Positions 15,745 through 54,858 of a stretch of 64,000 bases of DNA are shown here, piece by piece. The position numbers and the translations under genes were made by a program. Source of the DNA: Candidatus Bathyarchaeia archaeon. Lineage in GTDB: Archaea > Thermoproteota > Bathyarchaeia > Bathyarchaeales > Bathycorpusculaceae. Location: NCBI GenBank assembly GCA_038882975.1, contig JAVZNE010000002.1, positions 32,001 through 96,000 on the forward strand, given 5' to 3'. Below the pieces are notes generated by a model, which worked only from the letters and a program-made list of their open reading frames with translations, did no database searches and was not told where the DNA came from. Each line of letters begins with the position of its first letter. Within the stretch, counting starts at the first letter, position 1.

Positions 15745-15755
15745 TACCTCAAAGG

Positions 15756-18283: not shown

Positions 18284-18357
18284 CGAAGACCACGAGAAAA
18301 GCATACACACAAACTATATAAATACATTTAACTTCTCTCGCTTTGGCGTGTTTATAC

Positions 18358-19632: not shown

Positions 19633-19648
19633 AAAGGAAGTGAAAAAC

Positions 19649-20200
19649 ATGATTGTAATGGCCGTTGTTGGAGTAAGCAAATCTGGCAAAACAACGACAA
19701 TAGAATACTTAGCATCGAGGCTTACAAAAGAGGGATACAAAGTAGGCTCAATAAAGCACATCCATCACCCAGACTTTTCAATAGACACCGAAGGCACAGA
19801 CACGTGGAGACACATGCATGCGGGAGCAAAAGTAACAGTTGCCCTCGCACCTAAAGAAACAACAATCATTAAAAAAACGGACCATATTCCAAATAACCTG
19901 GACAACATTATCAAACTACTTAAAGACGAAAATCTAGACATAATATTCATTGAAGGACTACATTCACTCACGGCCAAAAGGAAAGACATCCCAAAAATCA
20001 TAACAGCAAAAGATGATCAAGATCTCATGAAAACATTGGAAGGAACTGAACCAATACTAGCAGTAACAGGAGTTATAACCAGTAAGAAAACAAAAATAAG
20101 CAAAGTTAACGTGCCCATGATCGATTTAAATAGGGAAGGCGCCACACTACTGAGACTCGTTAAAAATAAGCTGAGCGTCAAAAAATTAAGCGAGACTTAA
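19649..20200 (+). CDS. mobB: Molybdopterin-guanine dinucleotide biosynthesis protein B (second copy)
   Basis: GVSKSGKTT, IKHIHH, DTEGTDTWRH..AGA, IEG. Confidence 0.9.
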   Translation: MIVMAVVGVSKSGKTTTIEYLASRLTKEGYKVGSIKHIHHPDFSIDTEGTDTWRHMHAGAKVTVALAPKETTIIKKTDHIPNNLDNIIKLLKDENLDIIFIEGLHSLTAKRKDIPKIITAKDDQDLMKTLEGTEPILAVTGVITSKKTKISKVNVPMIDLNREGATLLRLVKNKLSVKKLSET

Positions 20201-29585: not shown

Positions 29586-29589
29586 AGCT

Positions 29590-30450: not shown

Positions 30451-30506
30451 AACGTTAAATGTTAGATATAAAGATTTAATGGTTCTAAATCTTGGAGGTG
30501 AAATTG

Positions 30507-37588: not shown

Positions 37589-38116
37589 TTAAGGTAGGAT
37601 ATACAAGGCTGCCTTTTTCCCTTTTAAAAGTGAAATAAGTCTTCGCCCTTTCCTCTCTTTAGCTACTTTTTCAAGGTAGTCCACTGTTCCACATACTATA
37701 GCACCTGTTGGACAAACCTCTTCACACGCTCTAGGCATCCAGTCAGGACGGTCATTGCAAAACGTGCACTTTTGCATCTTAAGGTCAGGGCCATACTTTG
37801 GCGCTCCGAAGGGGCAGACCCAGCTGCAAAGTCTGCAGCCTATGCATTTCTCTTTATCAACCAAGACCAATCCGTCTTCTCGTTTATAAATAGCCTTAGC
37901 AGGGCATGCAGCTATACAGTAGGGCTCTTCACAGTGCATGCATGCGATGGAAACATTTGTCCTTTCAACGGAAGGAAAAACGCCACTTTCAATCTCCATC
38001 ACCGTTCGGTAAGAGGGGACTGTTATGCCGTTCCAAACACGGCAAGCTATTTCGCAAGCATGACATTTTATGCATCTTTCAATGTCAACGAAAAAGCCTT
38101 TACGCGTTGACATCAA
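37589..38116 (-). CDS. 4Fe-4S electron-transfer subunit (DmsB/PsrB-like)
   Basis: CIKCHACEIAC, CMHCEEPYCIAACP, CIGCRLCSWVCPF, KCTFC. Confidence 0.92.
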   Translation of the reverse strand: MMSTRKGFFVDIERCIKCHACEIACRVWNGITVPSYRTVMEIESGVFPSVERTNVSIACMHCEEPYCIAACPAKAIYKREDGLVLVDKEKCIGCRLCSWVCPFGAPKYGPDLKMQKCTFCNDRPDWMPRACEEVCPTGAIVCGTVDYLEKVAKERKGRRLISLLKGKKAALYILP

Positions 38117-40317: not shown

Positions 40318-40794
40318 ATGGCTTTACATGGCGGTTCAGAAGATCTAACAAAGAAAATTGTTGAGATGAGCGGGCAAAACATTTTTTCATGTAATTTATG
40401 CGGCAAATGTACGGCTGGTTGTCCAATAGCAGATGTCATGGATATAAAGCCTCATCAAGTTGTAAGGTTGGCCCAAATACAAGCTGAAATTTTGTTGACG
40501 TCTAGGGCAATATGGCTTTGTGCATGTTGCCTTGCATGTGTGTCCCGGTGTCCAAAGCAGATAGATATCCCCAAATTGATGGAATCCTTCAGAAATTTGG
40601 TTTTGTCTGGTGGGATAGACTTCCTTGAATATGCTCCCGATTTGTCAACGCAGCTTCCAGTGCAAGCAATGGTTGCTGCACGGAGCAGATATACCTCAGT
40701 GAATTTGCCATCCGTGCGTCCAAGCATGAGGTTAGAGAAATATTTTACTCGTGAAAGGATACTAGCTCTGGTTAAGGGTGAAACCTCCAAATGA
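40318..40794 (+). CDS. hdrC: Heterodisulfide reductase subunit C
   Basis: CNLCGKCTAGCP, IWLCACCLACVSRCP. Confidence 0.88.
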   Translation: MALHGGSEDLTKKIVEMSGQNIFSCNLCGKCTAGCPIADVMDIKPHQVVRLAQIQAEILLTSRAIWLCACCLACVSRCPKQIDIPKLMESFRNLVLSGGIDFLEYAPDLSTQLPVQAMVAARSRYTSVNLPSVRPSMRLEKYFTRERILALVKGETSK

Positions 40795-41648
40795 AAGTTC
40801 CCTATTACCCAGGATGCCTACCCTATTCACGAACCATCGGACTAAATCTGCCTATAAAGGCGATTGCAAACGCCCTTAAAATTGAACTTATAGAAATTCC
40901 GGGGATTTGTTGCGGAGCGTTTTTCACAACAAACCCAGCAGATATGTATGGTCCGGTCCGCACTCTCATGGATGCGGGGAAAATTGGAAACGAGTTAATG
41001 ACCACATGCGCACTCTGTTATAACGTACTTAAGCAAGCAAACTCCACCATCAAAAGGGAACCAAAGAAACGCGAACAAATCAACGCTTTTCTAGGCGAGG
41101 AATATAACGGCGAAGTTAATGTACTTCATTTTCTAGAGTTTCTACGAGATAAAATCGGCTTTAACAAGTTAAATGGATATGTCAAAGTAAGCCTACAAGG
41201 CTTAAAAGTGGCTCCGTATTACGGCTGCCTGCTCTTACGGCCCTATGAGGAAATCAAACTTGACAACCCTGAGCATCCCACAATTTTTGAGGATTTTCTA
41301 ATAAACATAGACTGCGAACCCGTAGACTTCCCATACAAAACTGAATGCTGCGGGTCTTATTTAGCTGCCATCTCTTTTGACGCTGTCATAGAACACTCCT
41401 ATTCAATAATCAAATCAGCCTTACAAAGTGGAGCGGAAGCAATAGCTGTAGTTTGCCCGCTTTGCCACTTCAATCTTGACCAAATGCAAGAAAAGGTCAA
41501 GTTAAAATATAAAGATTTAAGCGAGATGCCCATATTCTATTTCACTCAGTTATTGGCAATAGCGTTAGGAATAAGGGATTCTTTGGGTTTTGAGCAACAT
41601 TTTGTTAATCCCTACCCTTTGCTGGACAAGAAATTAGGTAAAATCTGA
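40791..41648 (+). CDS. hdrB: Heterodisulfide reductase subunit B
   Basis: YYPGC, CCGA, CALCY, PYYGCLLLRP, ECCGS, CPLCHFNLD. Confidence 0.92.
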   Translation: MKVPYYPGCLPYSRTIGLNLPIKAIANALKIELIEIPGICCGAFFTTNPADMYGPVRTLMDAGKIGNELMTTCALCYNVLKQANSTIKREPKKREQINAFLGEEYNGEVNVLHFLEFLRDKIGFNKLNGYVKVSLQGLKVAPYYGCLLLRPYEEIKLDNPEHPTIFEDFLINIDCEPVDFPYKTECCGSYLAAISFDAVIEHSYSIIKSALQSGAEAIAVVCPLCHFNLDQMQEKVKLKYKDLSEMPIFYFTQLLAIALGIRDSLGFEQHFVNPYPLLDKKLGKI

Positions 41649-42109
41649 TGGAAAGGTCGAGAATGCTTAACCTAAGAGCCCACCACATACTATGTTTAAT
41701 AATACCAGATTCCAACGAATTCTGCACAACAGCCAGAAAAAAGTTTATGGAGAAAGGATACACCGACAATTACATTAACGCATACATGAAGGTATTTAAT
41801 ATTGTCCGCAGGAAAAAGGATGCAGAGATAAAAATCTTAGACAACCCAAAAAATGACGACACCTGTGTACGCTGCGGTAATTACGCCGACGGTACATGTA
41901 TTTCACCCCACGCAACAACCTTTGCAAAGTGGGACAAAGAAATCCTAACCATTTTTGAGTTAAAGGTTAACGATGTTTTAAAGGTGCGAGACTTAATCAA
42001 GCTTGTCAAGAGAAGAGTTGACCCAAATAACATGCCGGGAGTCTGCCGAGGCTGCCTATTTAATTTGGACAGCAAATGCCGCGAAAGGCTTGTCTCCGCG
42101 AACCTTTAA
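41648..42109 (+). CDS. DUF1284-like Cys/His-rich (putative Fe-S) protein
   Basis: LRAHHILC, DDTCVRC, CRGC...C. Confidence 0.75.
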   Translation: MERSRMLNLRAHHILCLIIPDSNEFCTTARKKFMEKGYTDNYINAYMKVFNIVRRKKDAEIKILDNPKNDDTCVRCGNYADGTCISPHATTFAKWDKEILTIFELKVNDVLKVRDLIKLVKRRVDPNNMPGVCRGCLFNLDSKCRERLVSANL

Positions 42110-42185
42110 CAACAACCAGCAGTCCTTTAGTCTCCGGCTTTAAACGCACAAATCTTATAGAAGAAAAGGAAACTCTATATCAGCC

Positions 42186-43235
42186 GTGTTTAACATGAAA
42201 AATGAAGTTGAAAATGTTATGGAAGAACTGCCAAACTCCATGGAAACAGGTAGACACTTTTATTATCTGAAGTTGCTGGAGCTTTGGGATGGATCAACCC
42301 TTCACTTGCCAATAATAGTAGTTTCAGGGAGGAAGACATGTCCCACTTTGTGTATTGTTGCATCCGTTATGGGTGACGAATTTCCAGGAACAGTTGTGGC
42401 TAGAAAGGTTGCGCTGGAATTAGATCCCGGAAAATTAAGAGGAACAATTATATCCGTTCCGATAGCGAACCCACCGTCATTCGGCTTTGGATCACATCCA
42501 CCCCTACACGTAAGCCCCCTAGACCACATGAACATGAATAGAATTTTTCCGGGTCGCCAAGACGGATATCCAAGCGAAAGAATCGCTTACGCAATTTTTG
42601 AGAAAGTTGTACGGAAAATGAAGGCAAACTATGTTGTCTCTTTTCATGGAGGGGGACCCTACTGTGAAGTTTACCCAGCCACCTACTTCACGGAAACAAA
42701 AGTTACAGAAGCCTCAATAGAGCTGGCCCTAGCCTTCGGAGTTGAACTGAACACAAAAATTTCGGAGGAGCTTCTTCCAACAGAGGAGCCTGAACGAGTT
42801 ACCGGCACATTGGATGCATGCTGCGGAAGACACGCCATACCAGCTATAATCGCAGACATCGGCGGATGGGGCATACTCTCAAATTACGGCTACTCATGGG
42901 TGGAAATAGGGTCTCGTGGAATTCTGAACATAATGAGATACTACAAAATGATTCCCGGAAAAGCTAAATTCCACCCGAAAGCTAAAGTTTTCGAAGGAAG
43001 AGTTTGGGTAAGACCGAACACAGGTGGATTTTTCGAAGCTAAAGTAAAACTAGGCCAAGGAGTTTCTAAAGGAAAAACTCTCGGCATAGTAACTGACGTT
43101 TTCGGGAAGAAAAAAGAAGAATTAATAGCCCCAAAAGATGGGGTCGTGCAACTCATAAGAACATACCCTGTTATAGGTTCAGGAGAAGAAGCATTCCTCA
43201 TCCATTACGGCGGCAAACCTATAAAACCACAATAG
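42186..43235 (+). CDS. Succinylglutamate desuccinylase/aspartoacylase (M14-like) family protein with altered metal motif
   Basis: GDEFPG, VPIANP, NMNRIFPG..DG, FHGG, C-terminal biotinyl-like domain. Confidence 0.83.
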   Translation: MFNMKNEVENVMEELPNSMETGRHFYYLKLLELWDGSTLHLPIIVVSGRKTCPTLCIVASVMGDEFPGTVVARKVALELDPGKLRGTIISVPIANPPSFGFGSHPPLHVSPLDHMNMNRIFPGRQDGYPSERIAYAIFEKVVRKMKANYVVSFHGGGPYCEVYPATYFTETKVTEASIELALAFGVELNTKISEELLPTEEPERVTGTLDACCGRHAIPAIIADIGGWGILSNYGYSWVEIGSRGILNIMRYYKMIPGKAKFHPKAKVFEGRVWVRPNTGGFFEAKVKLGQGVSKGKTLGIVTDVFGKKKEELIAPKDGVVQLIRTYPVIGSGEEAFLIHYGGKPIKPQ

Positions 43236-43249
43236 GAACTGATGCAACC

Positions 43250-43945
43250 ATGGTGAATTCAAAAGAAGAGACCTTTGAAAACAGCCTTTTATGCGACACC
43301 CTAAAGAACTGCGGTAAAGTGTACTTTTTACTAGGAAAGATTTATGAAAAGGAAGTGACCGCTAACCTTCTTAAATCTCTTAGCGAAAGCATAACATTTT
43401 TTAGAAGCAAAAAGTTAAGCGACGAGGAATTAGAAAAAGGAATTGAACTGTTGGACGAGTATTTAAGTAAGCAAAGAAGCCGTGGCTTCGAGTGTGCAGA
43501 AGCAGAGTTGGCAGTTGATTATGCCAACCTTTTTCTAGGAGTTAAGGGCTTGCCTCATCCTTCAGAGTCAGCCTACAAGTGCGGTTTTATAATGGCAAGT
43601 CCTTGCGAGGAAGTACTTCGAACATATCAAAAGGCAAATCTTAACCTTAAAGAGGATTATAAAGAGCCAGCAGACCACATTGCCGTAGAACTATACTTCA
43701 TGGCAAACCTGTGCTGGAAAACCGCAGAAAATTTAGCCAAAAATAAGAAACACGAAGCCAAAAAGTGTTTACAAATAATGAAAGACTTTCTAAACAATCA
43801 TCTACTATCATGGATCCCGTCGTTCACTACGAACATTTCGAATTTAGCTATAACGGATTTTTATAGAGGTCTAGCAATAATCACTAAAAGGTTTGCCGAG
43901 CTTAACAAAGCCTTAACGGAACAAGCGCTTAAACTTTTAGCCTAA
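43250..43945 (+). CDS. TorD/DmsD-family Mo-enzyme maturation chaperone
   Basis: DYANLFLG, PSESAY, EPADHIAVELYFMA, HLLSW, FY. Confidence 0.9.
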   Translation: MVNSKEETFENSLLCDTLKNCGKVYFLLGKIYEKEVTANLLKSLSESITFFRSKKLSDEELEKGIELLDEYLSKQRSRGFECAEAELAVDYANLFLGVKGLPHPSESAYKCGFIMASPCEEVLRTYQKANLNLKEDYKEPADHIAVELYFMANLCWKTAENLAKNKKHEAKKCLQIMKDFLNNHLLSWIPSFTTNISNLAITDFYRGLAIITKRFAELNKALTEQALKLLA

Positions 43946-44023
43946 AACGCTGTTTACGGAAGTTTTTAAATAATTGCTCTTTAGTAACTGTTATCCAAAA
44001 CAATTGTAGAGGGGTAGGAGTCA

Positions 44024-46720
44024 ATGGATATTAAAGAATTATCGGACATTGCGTCGTCTTTAAGTCTTGCCTTCGACGGGGCAGCTTTAACCCGGGAAAC
44101 GCCGCTGAAGGAAGAAACTGCGAAAGAAATAGACTCAGACGACGTGAAGGTTTGCTATGTAAGTCACGGTCTTGGAGGCATCTCAGGTTCAGCTGAACCT
44201 CTCGAAGTTCACGTTAAAAATGGTAGAATATTGAGAATAAAGCCCATCCACTTCCCTGAGGTGAGGCTTTACGAGATAAAGGCTCGGGGAAAGACTTTCA
44301 CTCAGCCTGCTAAAACCTTACCATACTGGGTTAGCCTAGCCTACAAGAAACGTGTTTATTCACCTAACAGAGTAAGGTACCCCTTGAAAAGGGTGGATTG
44401 GAGCCCCGAAAACAGGAATCCCCAAAACAGAGGTAAAAGCGGTTTTGTTAGAATAACGTGGGAGGAAGCCCTAGACATAATTGAGAAGGAACTTAAACGC
44501 ATAAAAGAAACTTATGGACTGTGGTCCGTTCTTGTACAAGATGACGGGCATGGACAAGGAGGAGCTGTCCAAACACCCCACGGCATCCACCATGAATTGT
44601 TCCGCCAGCTTGGGGGATGGACACAGCAAGTTAGAAACCCCGACAGCTGGGAAGGATACTACTGGGGCGCAAAACACGTGTGGGGAATGGAGGGACCCCA
44701 CGCAGGGCTTCCACATCAAGACGCTATATTTGATGATATTCTTGAAAATACTGAAGTGCTAATTTTCACGGGATGCGATCCTGAAGCCACCGTTGCCGGA
44801 TTTGCGGGGCAGATCGGCAGCATCATGTGCCGATGGTTCAAAGAAGCTGGCATTAAAATAATTGCAATATCTCCCGACTGCAACTTTGCAAATGCAATAC
44901 ACGCCAATAAATGGATTCCAATAAGGCCAAATACGGATGGCGCGTTATATTTGGCAATTGCATATCTGTGGATAAAGAATGGAACGTACGACCAGAATTT
45001 TGTCCAAACCCACTGCGTTGGCTTTGAGGAATTCCGTAAATACGTAACCGGAGAGGAGGATGGAGTACCGAAAACACCAGAGTGGGCTGAGAAAATAACA
45101 GGGATTCCTTCTAGGGTTATAAAGGCGTTGGCTAAAGTATGGGTTAAAAAGCGGACATCTCTTGCACTTTTCTTCGGCGGTCCAAAAATTAGAGGCCCCT
45201 ACTCTCATGAAACAGCTAGGTTAGAAGTAATATGTTTGGCAATGCAGGGATTGGGAAAACCCGGGAGACAATTACTTAGAGGGTTCTACCCGGCCGCTAC
45301 TGGCAAAAGGATAGCGCCGATCCCTCAGTATCCAGAGACTACGAGAAGTTTTGTTAGCAGTCCCATGGCCAGATACACTGTTACAGCCGTTTCCCCAGTG
45401 ATTGTGCCAAAGGTGCTGGTAGCCGACGCAATTTTGAACCCCCCGATAACATGGTATGGTACAGGGGCGATAAGCGCAACAAGGGAAGATCAATTTAAAA
45501 AGTATACGTTTCCACCTGAGGGCCACCCGGGTATACGTATGATTTGGAACGCCAACGGCTGCTATATCACTTGCTGGAACAGTAAGATAATAGACGCATA
45601 TAGAAGCCCCCAGATAGAGTTCATAGTGGCTGTTACTCCTTGGCTTGAAAACGAGGCCATGTTTGCTGATATAATACTTCCAGCACAGACGATTTTTGAA
45701 CATGAAGATCTAATAATAACCAGTAGATCTGCGGTGAGCGCAACCACGTATCAGGAAAAATGTATTGAACCCATAGGTGAATCAAAAAGCGATTATGAAA
45801 TATGCCGTTTAATAGCCCAAAGGATGGGTGTTGGAAATGCTTTTCCACCACAAGAGGAGCTCATGAAAAGCTTATACGAAGCATCTTACGCTGCGACAAA
45901 ATATGGAGTAAGCTGGGAAGAATTCAAGAAAAGGAAAATATTCATCCCGGACCACCCAACATGGGAGGAATGGAAACAAATCCAAAATAATATAGCTACA
46001 ACCTATGGCCTAACATGGGGCGCCAAGCCAGGACTAACATGGTTCTATGAATTGCCGGAAGGAAAAGGTCTTGAAACCCCCACGGGCAAGCTAGAGATAG
46101 TTTCTAGCGGATTAGCCGAGCACTTTCCGGATGATGAGGAAAGGCCTCCTCTCCCCCGGTACATACCCTATGGGGAGACGCATCAAGAAAGTCTACTCCA
46201 CCCGAGAGCCAAAAAATACCCATTACTTTTGGAGTCAAACCATCCGAAATGGAGATTTCACGCACAAGGAGACGACATAACATGGTTGAGGGAAATACCC
46301 ACATGCAAAGTAAGGGGGCCGGATGGTTACCTATACGAGCCCGTTTGGATTCATCCCATCGACGCAGCCAAAAGAGGCATAAAAACAGGGGATATAGTGA
46401 AAGTTTACAATGAACTAGGAACGGTGCTCTGCGGAGCCTACGTAACGGAACGAATAATGCCTGGAAGCGTCCTTGCGCATCACGGGGCAAGGGCTGACTT
46501 GGTATCCATAAGCCCGCTCATAGATAGAGGTGGAGCAATCGACCTAATTGTTCCGCCCAAACCAATGTCTAAAAACGCTGTGGGTCAAGTTTGCAGCGGC
46601 ATCCTTGTTGAAGTTGAAAAAGTGGATATTACTGAGCTCATGAAAAAATATCCGGAGGCTTTTAAGCGTCCACAACATCCGGATGTTGGTCCATTCTATG
46701 AAACCTGGGTTATGGGGTGA
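44024..46720 (+). CDS. AthL-paralogous Ser-ligated Mo enzyme (pyrogallol hydroxytransferase / resorcinol hydroxylase family)
   Basis: IKARGKTF, RNPQNRGKSGF, DDGHG, VRNPDSWEGYYWGAKHVWG, MQGLGKPG, DRGG. Confidence 0.87.
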   Translation: MDIKELSDIASSLSLAFDGAALTRETPLKEETAKEIDSDDVKVCYVSHGLGGISGSAEPLEVHVKNGRILRIKPIHFPEVRLYEIKARGKTFTQPAKTLPYWVSLAYKKRVYSPNRVRYPLKRVDWSPENRNPQNRGKSGFVRITWEEALDIIEKELKRIKETYGLWSVLVQDDGHGQGGAVQTPHGIHHELFRQLGGWTQQVRNPDSWEGYYWGAKHVWGMEGPHAGLPHQDAIFDDILENTEVLIFTGCDPEATVAGFAGQIGSIMCRWFKEAGIKIIAISPDCNFANAIHANKWIPIRPNTDGALYLAIAYLWIKNGTYDQNFVQTHCVGFEEFRKYVTGEEDGVPKTPEWAEKITGIPSRVIKALAKVWVKKRTSLALFFGGPKIRGPYSHETARLEVICLAMQGLGKPGRQLLRGFYPAATGKRIAPIPQYPETTRSFVSSPMARYTVTAVSPVIVPKVLVADAILNPPITWYGTGAISATREDQFKKYTFPPEGHPGIRMIWNANGCYITCWNSKIIDAYRSPQIEFIVAVTPWLENEAMFADIILPAQTIFEHEDLIITSRSAVSATTYQEKCIEPIGESKSDYEICRLIAQRMGVGNAFPPQEELMKSLYEASYAATKYGVSWEEFKKRKIFIPDHPTWEEWKQIQNNIATTYGLTWGAKPGLTWFYELPEGKGLETPTGKLEIVSSGLAEHFPDDEERPPLPRYIPYGETHQESLLHPRAKKYPLLLESNHPKWRFHAQGDDITWLREIPTCKVRGPDGYLYEPVWIHPIDAAKRGIKTGDIVKVYNELGTVLCGAYVTERIMPGSVLAHHGARADLVSISPLIDRGGAIDLIVPPKPMSKNAVGQVCSGILVEVEKVDITELMKKYPEAFKRPQHPDVGPFYETWVMG

Positions 46721-46726
46721 ACATAT

Positions 46727-47569
46727 ATGGGGAAAGTCTTTGTCATAGACGTAGCTAAGTGCAATGGTTGCTACTGCTGCCAAATAGCATGCAAAGATGA
46801 ACATGTGGAAAACGATTGGAGACCCTACACGAAACCGCAGCCTGACACTGGACATTTTTGGCTGAAAATTGAAGAACAGGAAAGGGGCAGCACCCCCAAA
46901 GTTAGAGTAACCTACATACCGCGCCTCTGTATGCACTGCGATAGCCCGCCATGCATCACGGCATGCCCTGTCAGGGCGATAACAAAGAGGGCGGATGGAA
47001 TAGTCCTCATAGATCAAGCGAAATGTAATGGATGCAAACAGTGTCTGGATGCTTGTCCATACAATGCGATATATTTTAACGACCAATTTAAGGTCGCCCA
47101 AAAATGCACCATGTGCGCTCACATATTGGATGGAAAGGATCCACTTGTTAAAGTTCCAAGATGCGTTGAAGTCTGTCCCCATAACGCCATAATTTTCGGA
47201 GAGTATGCCGAACTGAAAGACTTAATTGAAAAAGCGGAATTTCTAAAACCCGAATACGACACCAAACCGCGAGTCTACTATCTAAACATGCCGAAGCCAT
47301 TCATAGCGGGAGAGGTTTACGACCCAGAACTGGATGAATGCATTGAAGGAGCAAAAGTGGTTGCAGTGAACCTGAGAACTGGGAAAACACATCACACCGA
47401 GACTGACGAGTTCGGAGACTTCTGGCTTGAAAACCTAGAGTGGGGAAACACTTACAAGGTTAATATAGAAAAGGAAGGCTACGTTCCGTGGTCTATAGAC
47501 GAAGTAAAAACGGATAAAGATGTAAACTTAGGCGAAATAACATTACTGAAAAAACCCAAAAAACGCTGA
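46727..47569 (+). CDS. AthM-like small subunit retaining four 4Fe-4S motifs
   Basis: CNGCYCCQIAC, CMHCDSPPCITACP, CNGCKQCLDACP, KCTMC...C; C-terminal ECIEGA...TDEFGDFW domain. Confidence 0.88.
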   Translation: MGKVFVIDVAKCNGCYCCQIACKDEHVENDWRPYTKPQPDTGHFWLKIEEQERGSTPKVRVTYIPRLCMHCDSPPCITACPVRAITKRADGIVLIDQAKCNGCKQCLDACPYNAIYFNDQFKVAQKCTMCAHILDGKDPLVKVPRCVEVCPHNAIIFGEYAELKDLIEKAEFLKPEYDTKPRVYYLNMPKPFIAGEVYDPELDECIEGAKVVAVNLRTGKTHHTETDEFGDFWLENLEWGNTYKVNIEKEGYVPWSIDEVKTDKDVNLGEITLLKKPKKR

Positions 47570-47637
47570 CGAGGAAACTATTTTAGCCAAAATGGCAAAG
47601 TTATAAAGCAAAGGCTATGCATTTGGCGAGTGGTGAT

Positions 47638-47973
47638 ATGATAAAAGTAAAATTTGAAGAGGCTAAACCATACGACGCCCGTGGACACTTTAACATGGTT
47701 GCATTGAGACTCCAACACAAAGAAAACACTGGGGTCGAAAAATTTTGGGTCGGTTTGTCACATTTTCTTCCCGGCGGAGGGGCAGAAATGTCTGCCAGCA
47801 ATTTCGAGAGAGTGTATGTAATGCTATCTGGCAAAATTACCGTAATAGCAGAGGACGGAAAGGAAATAGAGCTTGAACCCCTTGATTCAATTTACATACC
47901 ACCCGGCGAAAAGCGCTCACTAATCAACAGAACTAACATGCCGGCGAGCATGCTGGTCATTTGCAGCACTTAG
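47638..47973 (+). CDS. Cupin-domain protein
   Basis: FWVGLSHFLPGGGAE, ERVYVMLSG, DSIYIPPGE. Confidence 0.85.
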   Translation: MIKVKFEEAKPYDARGHFNMVALRLQHKENTGVEKFWVGLSHFLPGGGAEMSASNFERVYVMLSGKITVIAEDGKEIELEPLDSIYIPPGEKRSLINRTNMPASMLVICST

Positions 47974-48027
47974 ACCAAAAACAAAATAAGGATGGTTCTT
48001 TCACCACTTATGGCGGAGAGTGAATTT

Positions 48028-48894
48028 ATGCGTGAAGATGTGCTGGAAAAGTATTTGCATGGATTTTTAGACAAAAGCGCCCTTGGCAAGCCAGAAGATG
48101 CCCTCAAAAAGCCGCTAGCTAAAATCTTTGGAAAGAATGTTGAGATTTTCGATTTAACACAGCCTTTCAGTGGGATGACACCAATATGGCCTTACGCAGC
48201 TGGAAACCCGCAGGTCACAAGGCTACGTTCTCATAACCATGATCGTGTGGTGGCACATTCTATAACGCATACAATGCACATCGCGACACATGTGGATGCA
48301 CCGCTTCACGTTGAAGAGGGCTACCCATCAATTGACCAAATGCCTTTGGAGCGTTACATAGGAGATGGTGTTGTCGTCTCAATTCCTAAGAAAACATGGG
48401 AAGTGATTACCCCTGAAGATCTTGAGAAGGTTGACCCTCCAATATTGGAGGGCGACATAGTGATAATCAACTCTGGTTGGCATGTTTACTATGGAGACAG
48501 CACTCGTTACTTCTGTTATGCCCCAGGATTATACAAGGATGCGGCAGAATGGTTTGTCAAGAAGAAAGTCAAAGGTGTTGGTGTTGACGAGCCCGCCATT
48601 GATCATCCGCTTGGAACGAGGCTTGTCCAGACAGCAGGGGGCTTCCAGCCTCTCTTACCATGGCTGATTGAAGCGTACAAGAAAGCTACTGGAAGAGATG
48701 TCTATCAAGATTTCCCATACTGGGAGCCATGTCACAGAATACTATACACGCATGGAATCTTTGGAATAGAAAACGTTGGAGGAGAAATAGACAAGGTAAC
48801 TGGCAAGAGATGTGTCATAGCTGCTTTTCCGCTCAAATGGATTGGGGGCGACGGGTCAATGGTCCGCTTAGTAGCCATGGTGGAGAAAAGGTAG
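48028..48894 (+). CDS. Cyclase-family (kynurenine formamidase-like) metal hydrolase; candidate dihydrophloroglucinol cyclohydrolase
   Basis: HIATHVDAPLH metal motif, VSIPKK.WEVIT, DHPL, WEPCH, ENVGG, GDGS. Confidence 0.85.
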   Translation: MREDVLEKYLHGFLDKSALGKPEDALKKPLAKIFGKNVEIFDLTQPFSGMTPIWPYAAGNPQVTRLRSHNHDRVVAHSITHTMHIATHVDAPLHVEEGYPSIDQMPLERYIGDGVVVSIPKKTWEVITPEDLEKVDPPILEGDIVIINSGWHVYYGDSTRYFCYAPGLYKDAAEWFVKKKVKGVGVDEPAIDHPLGTRLVQTAGGFQPLLPWLIEAYKKATGRDVYQDFPYWEPCHRILYTHGIFGIENVGGEIDKVTGKRCVIAAFPLKWIGGDGSMVRLVAMVEKR

Positions 48895-48905
48895 GGAGGA
48901 TAACC

Positions 48906-49676
48906 GTGGAGGACTTGTTCAGGCTTGACGGCAAAATAGCAGTTGTGATAGGCGGTGGTGGAGGTATAGGAAGAAACCTCGCCGAGGGATTAGTTCGATA
49001 CGGTGCAAAAGTAGTCATAGCCAGCAGAAACCTAGAAAACCTAGAAAAAGTGGCTAGAGAAATAAGCTCAACCTATAATGGCGAAGTCACTGCTTTTCAA
49101 GTTGACGTTACAAACGACGAAAGTGTAGCGCGATTAAGGGACCAAGTGGTATCAAAGTATGGCACTGTTGACATCCTAGTAAATTCACAAGGATATAACG
49201 TGAAAAGCTCTGCGGCAGAGTTCCCAACAAATGAATGGAACACGTTATTTGACATCAACGTTAAAGGCACAATGCTGGCATGCCGAGAGTTTGGAAAAGT
49301 AATGATTGAGAAAAGAAAGGGAAAAATAATCAACATGTCATCGGTCAGAGGTATCCGCGCAACAAAATGGCCCGGCAACCTTGGCTACTGCACAACAAAA
49401 AGCGCTGTAGACATGATTACAAAAGCTTTGGCGGCTGAATGGGCTCCATACAACGTTAACGTTAACGCCATCGCTCCGGCATGGGTGGATACAGGCTTTT
49501 CTCCAAGCTTAAGAGACCCCGCCCGTTTAAAAATAGCCCTAGAAAGCATTCCCATGGGAAGAATCGCTACACCTAAAGATGTAGTTGGCGTATGTGTCTT
49601 TCTCGCATCACCTGCGTCAGACTATGTAACTGGCCAAATAATCTATGTGGATGGCGGACTTACCCTCATAGGGTAA
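48906..49676 (+). CDS. NADP(H)-type SDR; candidate phloroglucinol reductase
   Basis: GGGGGIG, ASR (basic residue typical of NADPH preference), SQGYN, SSVRG, YCTTK; GTG start after GGAGG. Confidence 0.85.
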   Translation: MEDLFRLDGKIAVVIGGGGGIGRNLAEGLVRYGAKVVIASRNLENLEKVAREISSTYNGEVTAFQVDVTNDESVARLRDQVVSKYGTVDILVNSQGYNVKSSAAEFPTNEWNTLFDINVKGTMLACREFGKVMIEKRKGKIINMSSVRGIRATKWPGNLGYCTTKSAVDMITKALAAEWAPYNVNVNAIAPAWVDTGFSPSLRDPARLKIALESIPMGRIATPKDVVGVCVFLASPASDYVTGQIIYVDGGLTLIG

Positions 49677-49779: not shown

Positions 49780-51012
49780 TTACCACCATTTTTCGAGAAT
49801 TATGCATCCGTAGGCGCCATATGCGCCGTAAGCTGTACACGCCCCAATTTTAAGGTTTTTCTTCGCTTGCCTTTCTTGAGCTTCTCCTCTGAGCTGCCTA
49901 AACAACTCGTGGATCATCATAAAGGCTTGGCTCATCACCGCCTCGCCGAAGGATGCCGTCCCGCCACTTAGGTTTACTGGCAGTTTGCCATCGTGCCTGA
50001 TCTGCTTCTCCTTAATGAGTTTGTCTGTTTCTTCCCTTTCCCATCCCATTAGTTGGTCTATCCAGTTTATGGTGTGGAAGCAGCTTGTGTCATGACATTC
50101 AACAATGTCGATGTCCTCAGCTGTGATACCAGCCAGTTTGTAGGCTTTTTCTACTGGTTTGCGCCACTCAGTGAAAGGTTTAAGCCCTTTTGCTCCACCT
50201 TGTGTGGAGAAAACGCGGAGCCGTGGTATGGGCTCGCCATAAACTGGACCCCCTACCGCTGAAGCCGCTATCTTTACTGGTTTATCCGTTATTTTCCTCG
50301 CCGTGTCGCCGTCTGTTATAACAGCTGCTCCTCCACCGCTGCTAGTTGCGCATATCATATACAAGTGTAAGGGGTCGCAGACAACGGGTGAACTTAGAAC
50401 GTCTCTGGCTAAAAACACTTTTTTGTATCGAGCATATGGGTTTCTAGCGCCATACTCGCTTTGAATCTCCTTCACTAAGGCCATAAGCTCTTTTATACTG
50501 TCAACATCTTGTCCCATTTCGTACGCGCGTCGCCTTGCCCACATAGCCCAGTAGGCGGGATTGGTCGCGCCAATAACTTTTATTGCAGCAGCGTATGGAT
50601 CCGGGTCTAGAATCGACTGCCCTGGCAGGTAAAACCCCTTTGGAGAATTGTCTATCCCGGCGATAAGCACCTTTTTAAGCGAGCCAGTTTTTATCATGGA
50701 ATCCGCAACAGCAAAGGATATGGAAGCACTTGCACAAGCTGCACAAACATTTACACATTGCGCGTTACTTGTGCCTATTCTTTCTGCAAGCCTATGAGCA
50801 AAATGTTGAGCACTTGTTGTGATATAAGATGGATTGTCAAAGGGAATTGCCGTAGTGTTAGTGATTATCGCATCAAGCTCTCCCGGCTTCATTTTAGCTT
50901 CCCTGAGAGCCCTTACGGCAACTTCTGCAAGCTTATCTATAAGCAGCGGAGTGGGCTGACCAGCTTCAACCCACTCTGTTATTGCAACACTAACAATTGC
51001 ACTTTCAGGCAT
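49780..51012 (-). CDS. SCP2-type thiolase (lipid-transfer-protein-like subfamily)
   Basis: AACASAS, GATNPAY, ICATS, ECHD, VNLSGG..SFGE, QLRGEA. Confidence 0.88.
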   Translation of the reverse strand: MPESAIVSVAITEWVEAGQPTPLLIDKLAEVAVRALREAKMKPGELDAIITNTTAIPFDNPSYITTSAQHFAHRLAERIGTSNAQCVNVCAACASASISFAVADSMIKTGSLKKVLIAGIDNSPKGFYLPGQSILDPDPYAAAIKVIGATNPAYWAMWARRRAYEMGQDVDSIKELMALVKEIQSEYGARNPYARYKKVFLARDVLSSPVVCDPLHLYMICATSSGGGAAVITDGDTARKITDKPVKIAASAVGGPVYGEPIPRLRVFSTQGGAKGLKPFTEWRKPVEKAYKLAGITAEDIDIVECHDTSCFHTINWIDQLMGWEREETDKLIKEKQIRHDGKLPVNLSGGTASFGEAVMSQAFMMIHELFRQLRGEAQERQAKKNLKIGACTAYGAYGAYGCIILEKWW

Positions 51013-51013
51013 G

Positions 51014-51430
51014 TTACATCACCGGCTCAAAGAAATAGCTTAAATAGACGCTTTCGTCGTCCTCGTAAAGTTTGTCGATTTTAAGTCTTAACCTCATGCC
51101 TATCTTAAGCAGCTTTTCATCTGGAACTTTTATTCTGCTGACAACTATTATGCCTTCAGGAAGCTCCACGGCGCCGACCACATAAGGTGCTTTATGGTAT
51201 TGGAACGGCTCGCGTAAACTGTATGCATGAACAGTATATGTATACAGCGTCCCCTCAGTGCTCAAGAACCACTCCTCAACATTGACGCTGTGGTCACACT
51301 CCGGGTTATTGCAAACGTTAGACTTTGGAAATTGTATGCTTCCACATTTAGGACATCTACTACCGATTAGCCGCGGATTTTCAGACGGCCATTCAAAAAG
51401 TCCATCCATTATAGGAACTTCTTTCTTCAT
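51014..51430 (-). CDS. DUF35 Zn-ribbon/OB-fold thiolase partner
   Basis: RCPKCG..QFP...C..C, GTLYTYT, PYVVGAVELPEG, IGM. Confidence 0.9.
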   Translation of the reverse strand: MKKEVPIMDGLFEWPSENPRLIGSRCPKCGSIQFPKSNVCNNPECDHSVNVEEWFLSTEGTLYTYTVHAYSLREPFQYHKAPYVVGAVELPEGIIVVSRIKVPDEKLLKIGMRLRLKIDKLYEDDESVYLSYFFEPVM

Positions 51431-51544
51431 ATTAACTAACCTCTTAAAAAGTGAGCTGCTACTGATTTTAATTTTTTGGTAATAGAAAACTAAATTAACA
51501 AAGGGTGAATACATGAAAGCGCAGCACGATAAAGAGGGTGAGTG

Positions 51545-52339
51545 ATGGACTCGGAATTTAAACGCATAATTTATGAGAAAAAGGACGGTGTCGCATGGAT
51601 CACCTTAAACAACCCAGAACGCTACAACGCCCTCGATTACGAGATGCGAAAGGAATTAAAAACTGCTCTAGAAGACGTGGGCAAAGATGGCAACATAGTT
51701 GCGGTCGTCATTAAAGGATCAGAAAAAGCATTTAGCGCCGGAGGGGATGTTCGCGCTTTTGCAGAAATGAAGCCTTTTGAGGTTCTAGAACTGATTAGAG
51801 ATGTTGGAACAGCCTTTGTCTTGGGAAAAATCATTAGAGACATGCCAAAACCAGTCATAGCAGCAGTAAGCGGATACTGTTTGGGAGCAGGGTTTGAACT
51901 AGCTCAAGCATGCGATATAATATTCGCCTCAGAAGACGCTGTTTTCGGCCAGCCCGAAATAAACGTTGGACTTATCCCCGGCGGTGGTGGAACCCAGAGG
52001 CTGCCAAGATTCATTGGAGAAAAGAAGGCTAAGGAATTAATTTTTACTGGAGATAGATTGTCAGCCAAAGAAATGGCCGAATTAGGTTTGATCAACAAAG
52101 TTGTTCCGTTAGATCAGCTCATGAACACTGTTAACGAGTTTATTGAAAAAATTAAAAGCAAAAGTCCGTTGGTAATTGGAATCGCCAAGGAAGCAATAAA
52201 CCAATCCTTGGAAACAAGTTTATCCGAAGGCTTCAAATACGAGGCCCAACTCTTCGCACAGTTGTTCAGCACCGAAGACCAAAAAGAAGGGGCAAAGGCA
52301 TTTCTAGAAAAAAGAAAGCCTGTTTGGAAGGGAAAATAA
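51545..52339 (+). CDS. Enoyl-CoA hydratase/isomerase (crotonase)
   Basis: AFSAGGD, CLGAGFELAQACD, FGQPE..GLIPGGGGTQRL. Confidence 0.93.
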   Translation: MDSEFKRIIYEKKDGVAWITLNNPERYNALDYEMRKELKTALEDVGKDGNIVAVVIKGSEKAFSAGGDVRAFAEMKPFEVLELIRDVGTAFVLGKIIRDMPKPVIAAVSGYCLGAGFELAQACDIIFASEDAVFGQPEINVGLIPGGGGTQRLPRFIGEKKAKELIFTGDRLSAKEMAELGLINKVVPLDQLMNTVNEFIEKIKSKSPLVIGIAKEAINQSLETSLSEGFKYEAQLFAQLFSTEDQKEGAKAFLEKRKPVWKGK

Positions 52340-52415: not shown

Positions 52416-53564
52416 GTGAGTTGTATGATAAAAGCACCCTTAGAAGGAATAAAAGTACTCGATTTCACACATGAAGTTGCTGGACCACACTGCACAATGC
52501 TACTAGGTGATCTTGGTGCCGATATAATAAAGGTGGAGATGCCCGGGAAAGGAGACAGAGGAAGACACTGGGTTGGCATGAGAGAAACCATATTTATTAC
52601 AAATAACAGAAACAAGAAAAGCATTGTTTTAGACCTCAAAAGCGAAGAGGGAAGAAAAATAGCGTTCGAACTGGCAAAAAGGGTTGATGTGTTAGTTGAA
52701 AATTTTGTGCCTGGAACTATGAAGAAATTCGGCTTGGACTATGAAAGCATCAAAAGGGTTAACCCGAGAATAATTTATTGCTCGATTTCTGGATATGGGC
52801 AAGACGGCCCCTACAGTAGCCGCCCGGCATGGGATCCGATCATCGAGGCTGAATCCGGGTTAATGTCGCTTACTGGAGACCCAGAACCATGTTTGCCTTC
52901 AAGGATACCCGCCTCAATCATAGACTACGGCGCCGGTGTGTATGCAGCATTAGCAATAGTTTCAGCTTTACTGTATCGAGAGAAAACTGGAAACGGACAA
53001 ATGATTGACATCTCAATGCTTGATATCTCCGCGCTTTGGGCGGGATATTGGATTGCTTACAGTTCAATAACAGGGGAAGTCCGAGAAAGAATGGGTTCAG
53101 CTGCTCCTGTCGGAGCACCATACCAAGTTTTCAGAACAAAAGACTCCTACATTTTCATCGCAGCCTTTGAAGATGAACACTGGAAGAAATTATGCCAAGT
53201 TATAAAGGCGGAAAGTCTTTTGAACGATCCCTTGTATTCAACGAGGGAGAGCAGAGCTGCAAACAGAAAAATCCTTGTGGAAAAACTTGATAAGATAATC
53301 AGCGCATGGAACACTAAGGATTTGGTGGATGCTCTAATTGCAGCTGGAGTGCCATGTGCCCCCGTAAACAATACATTGGAAGTGGCAAGCCACCCACAAC
53401 TACTCTACCGAGGCATGATTGTTGAAATAGAATATAGGGGACAGAGAGTAAAAGTTCCAGGGATACCCTTCAAATTCTCTGAATGCCAATTAAAAATTAG
53501 GCACCTTCCACCGGAAATAGGGCAACACACAGAGGAAATTTTACATGCCCTCGGATTCAAATAG
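52416..53564 (+). CDS. Class III (CaiB/BaiF) CoA-transferase
   Basis: PLEGIKVLD, AGP, NRNKKS, ENF.PG, SISGYGQDGP, IIDY. Confidence 0.93.
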   Translation: MSCMIKAPLEGIKVLDFTHEVAGPHCTMLLGDLGADIIKVEMPGKGDRGRHWVGMRETIFITNNRNKKSIVLDLKSEEGRKIAFELAKRVDVLVENFVPGTMKKFGLDYESIKRVNPRIIYCSISGYGQDGPYSSRPAWDPIIEAESGLMSLTGDPEPCLPSRIPASIIDYGAGVYAALAIVSALLYREKTGNGQMIDISMLDISALWAGYWIAYSSITGEVRERMGSAAPVGAPYQVFRTKDSYIFIAAFEDEHWKKLCQVIKAESLLNDPLYSTRESRAANRKILVEKLDKIISAWNTKDLVDALIAAGVPCAPVNNTLEVASHPQLLYRGMIVEIEYRGQRVKVPGIPFKFSECQLKIRHLPPEIGQHTEEILHALGFK

Positions 53565-53646: not shown

Positions 53647-54858
53647 TTAACTTTTCCTCAAAGGTAAGAGAAAAAGAATGGATAACGCTGAAGTGACGAT
53701 GGCGAGTAGAAACGACGATCTGAGAGTCCCAGTCATGTCGGCTATCCACCCAGCTATTGGAGGTGAGGCCATGCATCCTACTCCGAGGAATATGGTCATT
53801 AAACCCAGTGCCATGCCAGCATGTTCTAAGGAAAATATATCTGATGTTAAGGCGGTGTAGAGGGGCCAGGCAGCCCCATAACCGGCACCGTAAATGGCGG
53901 ATGAGACAGCTAGCATGATGGATTCCAAATTTGGAAAATTCCGAGCTACGACCATGCCTAAGATGCCTACTGTTGATATGCCTCCGCATAACAACATAGT
54001 TTTCAACCTACCAATAAACTCGGAAAGCGACGCCAAAACCAGGGTTCCTGGTATTGCTCCAAAAGCAATTATGCTCACAAGCATGGAGGCAAATTTGTAA
54101 GGCATGCCTATTTCTTGAAAGCCATATGTGCTAAGAAATGTGAAGGGGATCATTACGTAAAAACCGACAAGCATATACGAAAAGCCCACAAGCCACAATT
54201 TTATATTTTTGACTATTGCAACGCTTTCTTTCAAGAAGTTTTTGCCAACACTCCTGCTTTGACTTTGAGCGAAACCTTCTGGATAGGCTTTGAACAAGAG
54301 CCAAGTCATAGGGGCAAGCAAGAAGCCAGCCGCACTAAACACACGCCATCCAAGCTTCCAGCTTCCAATTTCTACCAACATTGGCAAAATTATGCCTGTT
54401 ACTGCGAAGCCTATTGGCGCACCGATATTCACCATTGCAACTGCGAAGGCCCTTTTCTTGAACCATCTCTGGACAACCACAACAACTGGAACCCAGCATG
54501 CTGCACAGCCAATACCTGCCAGCATGAAGGATAAACTTGCCTCCACCAACGTATTAGACAAGCTCATAAAAAGCGTGCCAGCACCTAGCACCAATATAAA
54601 AAGGGTGATTATCTTTCTTGCGTCAAATCTATCTACAATAACGCCTAGAAAAAACGAGAAGACAGTATAGCCAATGAAATAAGATGTGTAAATAACTCCG
54701 GCCTCAAGTTTCGAAGCGTTCAGTGAAGCCACCATTTCTGGGAGCAAAACGCCATAGCCATATCTGATTGAGTAATGGACAAGTATTATAAAAAACCCTA
54801 CAAGCAAAACAGAAACACCTTTGCCAGTAACAGCACCGGCACGCTTTTTTAACAGCAT
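53647..54858 (-). CDS. MFS transporter
   Basis: ~12 hydrophobic helices, GVIVDRFDARK motif A, QRWF. Confidence 0.9.
   Translation of the reverse strand: MLLKKRAGAVTGKGVSVLLVGFFIILVHYSIRYGYGVLLPEMVASLNASKLEAGVIYTSYFIGYTVFSFFLGVIVDRFDARKIITLFILVLGAGTLFMSLSNTLVEASLSFMLAGIGCAACWVPVVVVVQRWFKKRAFAVAMVNIGAPIGFAVTGIILPMLVEIGSWKLGWRVFSAAGFLLAPMTWLLFKAYPEGFAQSQSRSVGKNFLKESVAIVKNIKLWLVGFSYMLVGFYVMIPFTFLSTYGFQEIGMPYKFASMLVSIIAFGAIPGTLVLASLSEFIGRLKTMLLCGGISTVGILGMVVARNFPNLESIMLAVSSAIYGAGYGAAWPLYTALTSDIFSLEHAGMALGLMTIFLGVGCMASPPIAGWIADMTGTLRSSFLLAIVTSALSILFLLPLRKS

Follow-up and report, generated by a model that had tools for sequence, protein, structure and literature searches.

The DNA considered here, called the window below, is a stretch of 64,000 nucleotides from a Candidatus Bathyarchaeia archaeon (GenBank assembly GCA_038882975.1, contig JAVZNE010000002.1, positions 32,001 to 96,000). 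It contains three adjacent genes, encoding a small cupin, a cyclase-family hydrolase, and a short-chain dehydrogenase/reductase (SDR), which probably serve to reduce and open the ring of phloroglucinol (1,3,5-trihydroxybenzene), as the core of an anaerobic pathway in this archaeon. Judged by sequence comparison and gene neighborhood, the locus appears to be a variant of a known pathway in an unexpected host. The initial annotation of this DNA, made from the letters alone, had placed the trio here and likened it to the bacterial phloroglucinol reductase/cyclohydrolase cluster. The three genes, all read in one direction, are indeed where it put them, and the likeness has held: the cyclase groups with proteins listed as dihydrophloroglucinol cyclohydrolase (DPGC), the cupin is a frequent companion in related loci, and the SDR belongs to a subfamily that occurs almost only in phloroglucinol-type clusters.

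Phloroglucinol is a funnel intermediate in the anaerobic breakdown of tannins and flavonoids, a process linked to the storage of carbon in anoxic soils and sediments (Zhou et al. 2023, PMC10470551). According to the same study, Clostridium scatologenes degrades it with an SDR-type phloroglucinol reductase (PGR), a Mn-dependent cyclase-family DPGC, a TfD of the 3-hydroxyacyl-CoA dehydrogenase (3HCDH) type, and a TAL of the BKACE type. Like that cluster, the locus sets an SDR next to a hydrolase of the DPGC family, has an Arg of the NADPH type after strand beta-2 (in S-R-N, the possible counterpart of the clostridial T-R-(S/N) motif), and has an MFS transporter nearby. There are differences, too: the SDR falls into another deep clade than the PGR of 5G4L, TfD and TAL are missing from the locus and BKACE from the genome, the host is archaeal, the cluster is linked to two molybdenum (Mo) transhydroxylase operons, and it includes a cupin, which the relevant parts of Zhou et al. 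2023 (PMC10470551) do not mention.

The proposed pathway would run as follows. The Mo transhydroxylases AthL1/BthL1 (26994-30450) and AthL2/BthL2 (44024-47569) would deliver phloroglucinol, a step that leans on the orthology of AthL1 to the structurally characterized enzyme 4V4C. The SDR would reduce the keto tautomer of phloroglucinol with NADPH to dihydrophloroglucinol, and the cyclase, given its family, would then open the ring by a metal-dependent retro-Claisen hydrolysis, yielding 3-hydroxy-5-oxohexanoate. The cupin may act on or near the labile intermediate that these two enzymes share. Finally, the C6 acid (3-hydroxy-5-oxohexanoate or triacetate) would be activated by a family III CoA-transferase, oxidized to the 3,5-dioxo level by a 3-hydroxyacyl-CoA dehydrogenase whose gene lies in another part of the genome, and cleaved as its CoA ester by a thiolase/DUF35 pair to acetoacetyl-CoA and acetyl-CoA.

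Cyclase and SDR of the trio

The cyclase scores 121 bits against PF04199 (cut-off 23.1 bits), and the motifs HIATHVDAP, WEPCH, ENVGG, and GDGS, pointed out in the initial annotation, are all present in its translation. His96, His100, and Asp102 of the first motif and His248 of the second are invariant in a 17-member alignment and are the putative metal ligands. The protein is 62% identical to Archaeoglobus fulgidus O29068 (P0047 in the present set; UniRef100_O29068), which is listed as a DPGC in supplementary data 4 of Zhou et al. 2023 (PMC10470551) and whose cluster is named there as an archaeal phloroglucinol cluster; both are of the archaeal DPGC type and have the same N-terminal extension. 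In bacterial clusters where the known reductase type, TfD, TAL, and the same cupin are encoded as well, the cyclases are 50-57% identical to it, with 54% for that of a Rubrivivax gelatinosus locus (L056; surveyed loci are given L numbers throughout). A possible further point of contact is the loop W66-P67-Y68, which lies 12 residues past the DL motif and of which W66 and P67 are invariant in nine relatives. The same W and Y carry the numbers 20 and 22 in P0092, a bacterial homologue of 250 residues, and in the C. scatologenes enzyme the DPGC-specific Trp20 and Tyr22 of the substrate loop replace the Ile and Leu of isatin hydrolase (Zhou et al. 2023, PMC10470551). By this indirect mapping, through P0092, the W-P-Y loop would be placed where the DPGC-specific residues lie.

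A FastTree phylogeny, with distant cyclases as the outgroup and with 87 of 143 rows dropped as at least 85% identical to a kept row, puts the window's cyclase in a starred archaeal clade together with O29068, sister to 30 cyclases of bacterial clusters. This clade has two parts. Subclade A1 holds the window, L096, L102, L017_2650, and L018, and accompanies SDRs of a clade termed B1 as well as thiolase-type genes; subclade A2, to which O29068 belongs along with L017_8832, L020, L022, and L023, accompanies cupin, SDR of clade B2, 3HCDH, or BKACE in the loci whose flanks were read (L017, L023, and also L021, about 61% identical and collapsed in the tree). The cyclase is accordingly assigned, as a predicted function, to the DPGC family, archaeal subclade A1.

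Both subclades meet on one Caldarchaeum contig (L017, 2650-10597): a first set consists of cyclase-A1, SDR-B1, and an HMGL-like gene, and a second of 3HCDH, a DHDPS-family gene, cupin, SDR-B2, cyclase-A2, and a DAPG (phloretin-type) hydrolase. Among the cyclase homologues, P0121, P0012, and P0017-P0021 have 464-524 residues and are about 48% identical to the query; P0121 is matched in two stretches, which suggests tandem-duplicated cyclase domains.

What surrounds such cyclases in other genomes? The 17-sequence alignment had no stretch conserved enough for a genome scan, and an alignment of nine sequences was used instead. The 80 best loci hold relatives 49-88% identical, among them Rubrivivax gelatinosus and many Mycobacterium species, both of which are groups named by Zhou et al. 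2023 (PMC10470551). Clostridia are not found among these 80, nor is a named Clostridium entry among the cluster members of ten distant cyclase representatives. An SDR is present in 61 of the loci, a cupin in 48, and 3HCDH and/or BKACE in 41 (both in 29), and the usual bacterial order is cyclase-cupin-SDR; thiolase/DUF35 occurs in only four, all archaeal. In L041 the SDR next to the cyclase-cupin pair has PGR itself as its top PDB match (5G4K, 185 bits, the next match at 145; the code is given in supplement 1 of Zhou et al. 2023, PMC10470551). Since the crystallized PGR (5G4K/5G4L) is the best match by 40 bits, the bacterial cyclase-cupin-SDR loci are, on this comparison, taken to be genuine phloroglucinol clusters.

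As for the SDR, translation most likely starts at GTG 48906, because a GGAGG lies 6 nt upstream and the resulting 256 residues equal the length of the closest homologues. The motifs listed earlier (SQGYN, SSVRG, GYCTTK, and ASRN with its Arg after beta-2) are present in the translation, and the B1 alignment conserves both the Gly-rich NADP site (GGGGGIG) and the catalytic Ser-Tyr-Lys of classical SDRs (S150/S151 and Y166-x3-K170). In S45-R46-N47, after beta-2, the Arg and the Asn are conserved in B1; this stretch may correspond, with Ser in place of Thr, to T-R-(S/N) of PGR, a motif in contact with the 2'-phosphate of NADPH (Zhou et al. 2023, PMC10470551). No other classical SDR is encoded in the window's genome, which is 94.7% complete.

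SDR trees resolve three deep starred groups: the canonical PGR clade, with L041 and the SDRs of the proteobacterial and mycobacterial loci; B2, with the archaeal cupin-adjacent SDRs and Dehalococcoidia; and B1, which includes the window's SDR. B1 has a support of 100 and unites the SDRs of two kinds of cluster, namely BKACE-cyclase-SDR-cupin-3HCDH and AthL-cyclase-SDR-thiolase. A metagenome scan with the B1 alignment returned 80 loci, whose SDRs are 58-89% identical to that of the window, and in a word-indexed SDR search that scored the 8000 best candidates all 120 listed matches were at least 61% identical to it. Each of the 80 loci holds exactly one SDR. Within 3 kb of it lie a cyclase in 51 loci, BKACE in 37, 3HCDH in 34, thiolase in 22, and an AthL-type gene in 23 (25 when the whole locus is considered); the nine loci without any of these genes are short or have the SDR near a contig end. 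Of the 80 loci, 26 extend for 3 kb or more on each side of the SDR; in 21 of these a cyclase is within 3 kb, and 12 are of the TAL/TfD type and 15 of the thiolase type, one being both and none neither. The order in L106, L142, L164, and L173 is BKACE-cyclase-SDR-cupin-3HCDH; such clusters comprise the four published enzymes and the cupin, and B1 takes the place of the reductase. As the sole SDR of phloroglucinol-type loci, B1 is most likely, from this association, an isofunctional and so far unrecognized clade of phloroglucinol reductases.

Could these three genes merely lie side by side, as an unrelated SDR of the gluconate 5-dehydrogenase type, a kynurenine formamidase, and a stray cupin? 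The automatic names of the best matches ('gluconate 5-dehydrogenase', 'glucose 1-dehydrogenase', 'kynurenine formamidase') and 1VL8 as the top PDB match of the SDR speak for this, and the initial annotation had itself named such hits, if found in unrelated contexts, as grounds for abandoning its proposal. The names did turn up, but the contexts proved to be phloroglucinol clusters: cupin, cyclase, and SDR are found together in archaea and in many bacterial phyla, with TfD/TAL or transhydroxylase genes and in varying gene order, and tryptophan or gluconate (sugar-acid) pathway genes are not found near the trio in the window. Family scores also stay below the curated cut-offs, both for the best NCBIfam model of the SDR (NF006070, gluconate 5-dehydrogenase, 233.7 bits against 279) and for TIGR03035 (kynurenine formamidase) on the cyclase (61.6 bits against an equivalog cut-off of 223). 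The closest solved structures of the cyclase, from the kynurenine formamidase/isatin hydrolase group (4CO9, 5NNB), have its fold and metal motifs, but the match is weak (E 1e-9 to 1e-12), covers the core only, and comes from a different genomic context; in the same way, Thermotoga maritima 1VL8 has the fold and cofactor motifs of the SDR and differs in genomic context. A chance neighborhood is thus highly improbable, and the pairing of a kynurenine formamidase with a gluconate 5-dehydrogenase is rejected in view of the curated cut-offs and the genomic context.

A subtler alternative is that the SDR of the thiolase-type clusters performs the TfD step, on 3-hydroxy-5-oxohexanoate or its CoA ester, and that another enzyme reduces the ring. 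The locus has no 3HCDH, yet an oxidation is needed to balance the NADPH spent (following the logic of Zhou et al. 2023, PMC10470551), and the solved structures nearest to the SDR are ketoacyl and sugar-acid reductases. Moreover, other folds may reduce the ring: in a bathyarchaeial locus (L021, 7965-12260) which has no SDR, the genes cyclase-3HCDH-BKACE-cupin are followed by a luciferase-like oxidoreductase that may take over the part of the ring reductase. On the other side, a B1 SDR stands together with 3HCDH in 33-34 of the 80 metagenome loci, and a TfD function would be superfluous there; the thiolase-type loci share no conserved candidate for another reductase; and generic 3HCDH genes exist elsewhere in the genome. 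The TfD role is therefore regarded as improbable, and ring reduction is retained as the function of the SDR.

Downstream module and transhydroxylases

Behind the trio, the locus departs from the published clusters. The archaeal loci L015, L016, L018, and L024 combine cyclase and SDR-B1 with thiolase/DUF35, crotonase, and a CoA-activating enzyme, though not always in the same gene order, and so do 22 of the 80 metagenome loci; the thiolase is conserved next to cyclase-SDR in L015, L016, and L024. Altogether, such a thiolase-type set takes the place of TfD/TAL in about 26 loci (some of them near-duplicates), almost always beside transhydroxylase genes. The crotonase travels with thiolase/DUF35 in 20 of the 80 metagenome loci as well as in L015, L016, L018, and L024. 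Together, thiolase/DUF35 and crotonase might conceivably carry out a retro-aldol reaction of the kind known from steroid side-chain cleavage. Because the DUF35 homologues of L015, L016, and L024 have only 140-141 residues, the true start of the window's DUF35 protein is probably internal to its open reading frame (ORF). The family III CoA-transferase is present in L015, L016, L018, and L169; in the bacterial loci L128, L163, L115, and L141 and, judged by their ATP-grasp subunits, also in L140 and L126, an ADP-forming acyl-CoA synthetase replaces it. This non-homologous replacement of the activating enzyme supports the view that a free acid is activated. A 3HCDH is added in L115 and L141.

L141 (94-9504) is peculiar in other respects, since its B1 SDR is accompanied by a GntR regulator, an SMP-30/gluconolactonase-like protein, a class II thiolase, 3HCDH, thiolase/DUF35, crotonase, and an acyl-CoA synthetase; the contig has no cyclase, which the lactonase-like protein might replace. 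Two cyclase-SDR(B1) clusters have Amidohydrolase_2 genes (PF04909) upstream (L128, 3-1016; L017, 329-1090, there split into two ORFs), a family that includes non-oxidative aromatic-acid decarboxylases.

Two precedents can be compared with this module. Pelobacter acidigallici has the pyrogallol-phloroglucinol transhydroxylase (4V4C), of which the window encodes a true AthL/BthL orthologue (1096 bits), and work by Brune and Schink in 1992 reportedly described the later steps of its phloroglucinol pathway as CoA-dependent. The proposed route resembles these steps, since CoA-transferase and thiolase would suit the CoA-dependent splitting of an intermediate at the triacetate level into acetyl units. 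Unlike P. acidigallici, the locus has a second AthL paralogue, a crotonase without a step, and no dedicated dehydrogenase. From cell extracts of Pelobacter, 3-hydroxy-5-oxohexanoate and triacetate were proposed as intermediates, with no genome available (Zhou et al. 2023, PMC10470551). The second precedent is the aldolase-dependent branch of Collinsella sp. zg1085, which leads to acetone and malonate semialdehyde (Li et al. 2024, via the review PMC13039779). It starts with the same PGR and ring opening and diverges after 3-hydroxy-5-oxohexanoate, so that the downstream part of the pathway is modular; in place of the aldolase branch, the locus has CoA-transferase, crotonase, and thiolase/DUF35.

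A broader proposal can be put forward tentatively, and with more doubt than the assignment of the trio itself. The locus might represent a third, CoA-dependent branch of phloroglucinol catabolism (CoA-transferase or ADP-forming ligase, crotonase, SCP-x thiolase, and DUF35) with a new reductase clade and two Mo transhydroxylase paralogues feeding it, by which Bathyarchaeia and allied sediment archaea would ferment tannin-derived trihydroxybenzenes, and in which the cupin, as a fifth catalytic component, would act on the labile keto tautomer or on dihydrophloroglucinol.

Which compound enters the pathway depends on the transhydroxylases. As the initial annotation held, two AthL proteins of different standing are present. 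AthL1 scores 1096 bits against 4V4C and keeps the equivalents of His144, Tyr152, Arg153, Asp174, and Ser175, whereas AthL2, with 451 bits, is a paralogue in which H176, D207, and S208 correspond to His144, Asp174, and Ser175 but Thr184/Pro185 stand at the positions of Tyr152/Arg153, so that its set of transhydroxylase active-site residues is incomplete. In the transhydroxylase, Ser is the Mo ligand and His144, Tyr152, Arg153, and Asp174 are active-site residues; the identities of these residues were confirmed in the 4V4C sequence. The AthL2 type is a conserved subfamily of 12 sequences (the window and 11 locus ORFs), and it adjoins AthL1-type genes in L110, L111, and L157, which fits the two transhydroxylase operons carried by sediment Chloroflexi (Hug et al. 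2013). It is a possibility that AthL2 converts another trihydroxybenzene isomer.

In the neighborhood of AthL2, the HdrC-like, HdrB-like, and DUF1284 genes are conserved in place in L015 (1517-3305) with 65-84% identity, and the HdrBC-like genes may provide an electron-transfer link for AthL2 or signify a net redox reaction. In the close relatives L024 (2-3366) and L097 (2-2786), the AthL2 pair is immediately preceded by a further AthL/BthL-like pair, whose large subunit is 55% identical to AthL2 in L024 and has no PF21423 match.

The initial annotation had suggested that the paralogue, which directly precedes the trio, specifically supplies its substrate. This did not hold up. The order cupin-cyclase-SDR after AthL2/BthL2 does recur in L097-L100 (on the 4.4-kb contig of L095 the trio is present, but no AthL precedes it), but a true AthL-type gene, 52-68% identical to AthL1, adjoins the same cyclase-SDR module in L018, L169, and 12 further metagenome loci that are of the thiolase type or likely so; in L018 and L169 it stands directly beside ECH-cyclase-SDR-CoAT-DUF35. 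The adjacency of the paralogue is thus lineage-specific and is not shown to define the substrate of the trio. Since the true AthL type stands beside the module in relatives, phloroglucinol stays the likeliest substrate.

The same enzymology on a related meta-hydroxylated aromatic supplied by the paralogue, such as hydroxyhydroquinone, resorcinol, or a methyl- or acyl-phloroglucinol, has to be weighed here. In its favor are the position of the trio directly after AthL2 with its divergence at the Tyr152/Arg153 equivalents, the upstream HdrC/HdrB-like genes if they mean a net redox reaction, the two cyclase/SDR pairs of L017, of which A2/B2 lies beside the DAPG-hydrolase gene, and the separation of the A1/B1 subclades from the A2/B2 set of the A. 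fulgidus type. Against it, B1 occurs in complete BKACE-cyclase-SDR-cupin-3HCDH clusters without any other reductase, the AthL type that adjoins the module in the 14 loci just mentioned has phloroglucinol as its known product, and a true AthL is encoded in the window itself, at a distance of 17 kb. A different aromatic is therefore considered unlikely, and phloroglucinol is kept as the substrate in what follows. A route through resorcinol and 1,3-cyclohexanedione, to which crotonase and thiolase had pointed, was rejected: neither an acyl-CoA dehydrogenase nor a candidate resorcinol reductase belongs to the module, which in relatives is flanked by genes of the true AthL type.

Several observations weigh against a phloroglucinol core and are brought together here. 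The window's SDR lies outside the clade of the crystallized PGR (5G4K/5G4L) and is not its orthologue; its 382 PDB matches are led by Thermotoga maritima 1VL8, a 'gluconate 5-dehydrogenase' (204 bits), and the best 60, which all score at least 125 bits, do not include 5G4K. Of the earlier claim that subfamily signatures match clostridial phloroglucinol clusters, the part on the cyclase family stands and the part on the SDR does not, 5G4K being the top match for L041 instead. B1, B2, and the canonical clade do group together against four unrelated SDRs of the same loci, but this outgroup is thin and the branching order unsettled. The survey counts are not independent: L098 equals L099, and the SDRs are identical in L096/L024 and in L102/L016. 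Neither 3HCDH (TfD) nor BKACE (TAL) is found within the window, and BKACE is absent from the whole genome; two 3HCDH genes lie elsewhere in it, in beta-oxidation clusters. The proposed chemistry leaves no step to the crotonase, a strictly conserved member of the module. The double sets of L017 hint that the A1/B1 and A2/B2 pairs may have different substrates, and the cupin is missing from the closest relatives (L015, L016, L024, L096) and would thus be dispensable. Finally, the link to the characterized PGR and DPGC of C. scatologenes runs through proteins whose assignment by Zhou et al. was purely bioinformatic.

Should B1 be a phloroglucinol reductase, surveys restricted to the clostridial PGR type would miss many degraders. 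The thiolase-type module lies outside the two branches, TAL-dependent and aldolase-dependent, that the cited parts of the literature describe, and it may hold the genes behind the Pelobacter-type route. The locus suggests that such archaea ferment plant phenols; if this is true, Bathyarchaeia, which are very abundant sediment archaea, gain a concrete and testable role in polyphenol turnover. A role of theirs in the turnover of phloroglucinol or pyrogallol was not found described in the literature searched.

The cupin

The third member of the trio contains FWVGLSHFLPGGGAE in its translation and likely starts at ATG 47638, as first proposed, since the Met at ORF position 8 is common to 93% of 68 homologues. 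Y19, H24, S48, P52, Y67, G72, and R100 are common to all 68, and E64, D90, and E98 are found in at least 93%. The initial annotation saw no two-His metal motif, and rightly so: Ser48/His49/Phe50 and Arg100 occupy the canonical positions, and neither His-x-His nor the His of the second motif is conserved in the 68 homologues. NF050094 (the M. tuberculosis cupin 'beta-D-galactosidase') scores 88.1 bits, its cut-off being 175, and is homologous over residues 13-116 without being an equivalog. A PDB search gave weak generic cupin matches only (E 1e-3 or worse), and a search of the protein atlas generic cupin clusters only.

More telling is the company that the cupin keeps. Besides its presence in the cyclase loci counted above, it occurs in 19 of the 80 SDR metagenome loci. 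For 63 cupin genes, the locus also holds both an SDR and a cyclase gene; the distance to the SDR is then at most 150 bp, with both genes on one strand, in 44 cases, and the distance to the cyclase at most 150 bp in 47. It is present at the same position in L095 and L097-L100. By this distribution, the cupin is a conserved fifth gene, a regular accessory member of phloroglucinol clusters. As PGR reduces the keto tautomer of phloroglucinol (Zhou et al. 2023, PMC10470551), a tautomerase-like activity is a reasonable guess for it. A complex prediction for cyclase, SDR, and cupin (the cupin as partner), run without controls, scored 0.00 and is uninformative on binding either way.

Layout of the locus and its surroundings

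The trio ends a co-directional run of ten genes (40318-49676), in which 68 bp separate the BthL-like gene from the cupin, 18 bp the cupin from the cyclase, and 11 bp the cyclase from the SDR. The features are collected in the table below.

Table 1. Genes of the locus in the window, with coordinates, strand, and matches
Feature	Coordinates	Strand	Match or remark
AthL1, true AthL orthologue	26994-29585	+	4V4C_A, 1096 bits over residues 12-860; 17 kb upstream
BthL small subunit of the true transhydroxylase (BthL1)	29590-30450	+	Fer4_11, E 3.9e-31, and CarboxypepD_reg
HdrC-like, HdrB-like (CCG), and DUF1284 genes	40318-42109	+	Head of the AthL2-containing operon
AstE/AspA-type deacylase	42186-43235	+	PF24827, E 2.6e-15; between DUF1284 and TorD
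TorD/NarJ-type chaperone for the following molybdoenzyme	43250-43945	+	PF02613, E 3.1e-28; same position in L015
AthL2, AthL paralogue, Mo-bisPGD transhydroxylase-family large subunit	44024-46720	+	4V4C_A, 451 bits
BthL-like iron-sulfur small subunit of AthL2	46727-47569	+	Fer4_11, E 1.9e-25, and CarboxypepD_reg domain
Small cupin, 111 aa	47638-47973 (longest ORF from 47617)	+	PF07883, E 5.4e-11
Cyclase-family hydrolase	47992-48894	+	PF04199, E 5.6e-35
Classical NADPH-type SDR, clade B1, 256 aa	48906-49676 (longest ORF from 48729)	+	adh_short_C2, E 2.4e-62
SCP-x/lipid-transfer-type thiolase-like protein	49780-51012	-	PF22691, E 1.7e-25; NF004715, 269 bits, below cut-off
DUF35 (OB-fold/zinc-ribbon) thiolase partner	51014-51514	-	PF01796, E 2.9e-15; PF12172, E 3.7e-09
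Crotonase-family enoyl-CoA hydratase	51542-52339	+	PF00378, E 4.5e-74
Family III CoA-transferase	52416-53564	+	PF02515, E 9.1e-125
MFS transporter flanking the cluster	53647-54858	-	PF07690, E 3.1e-52

That the host is archaeal follows from the ribosomal proteins S19e and L31e, eIF-6, and prefoldin encoded in the window. The nearest titled relatives of the locus are records of Bathyarchaeia metagenome-assembled genomes, and the closest named SDR matches, about 90% identical, are also from Bathyarchaeia. A cyclase orthologue was found in none of 13 genomes of the same genus and in one of 11 other genomes of the same family, and with this patchy distribution the module is an accessory trait in the lineage. 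For the AstE/AspA-family deacylase, relatives are absent from the 80 genome loci at the thresholds used.

The region 5651-40212 of the window is a molybdoenzyme island. Together with the AthL2 gene, it gives the window six Mo/W-bisPGD catalytic subunits (5651-7876, 7982-10582, 26994-29585, 30492-32960, 38113-40212, and 44024-46720). The island also holds MoeA (18343-19632), two genes with MobB domains (17513-18310 and 19586-20200), and a MobA-like one (20213-21265), as well as a binding-protein/FecCD/ABC transporter (14635-17526). A peptidase-U32-family gene and a CCG/4Fe-4S protein adjoin the module both in the window and in L016 (12260-16385), and the window, L016, L024 (12703-14064), and L097 (12328-13686) have in common a radical SAM gene with an HMPTM zinc ribbon; the peptidase-U32/CCG and radical SAM genes of the window are covered by 2790-5149 and 10897-12345.

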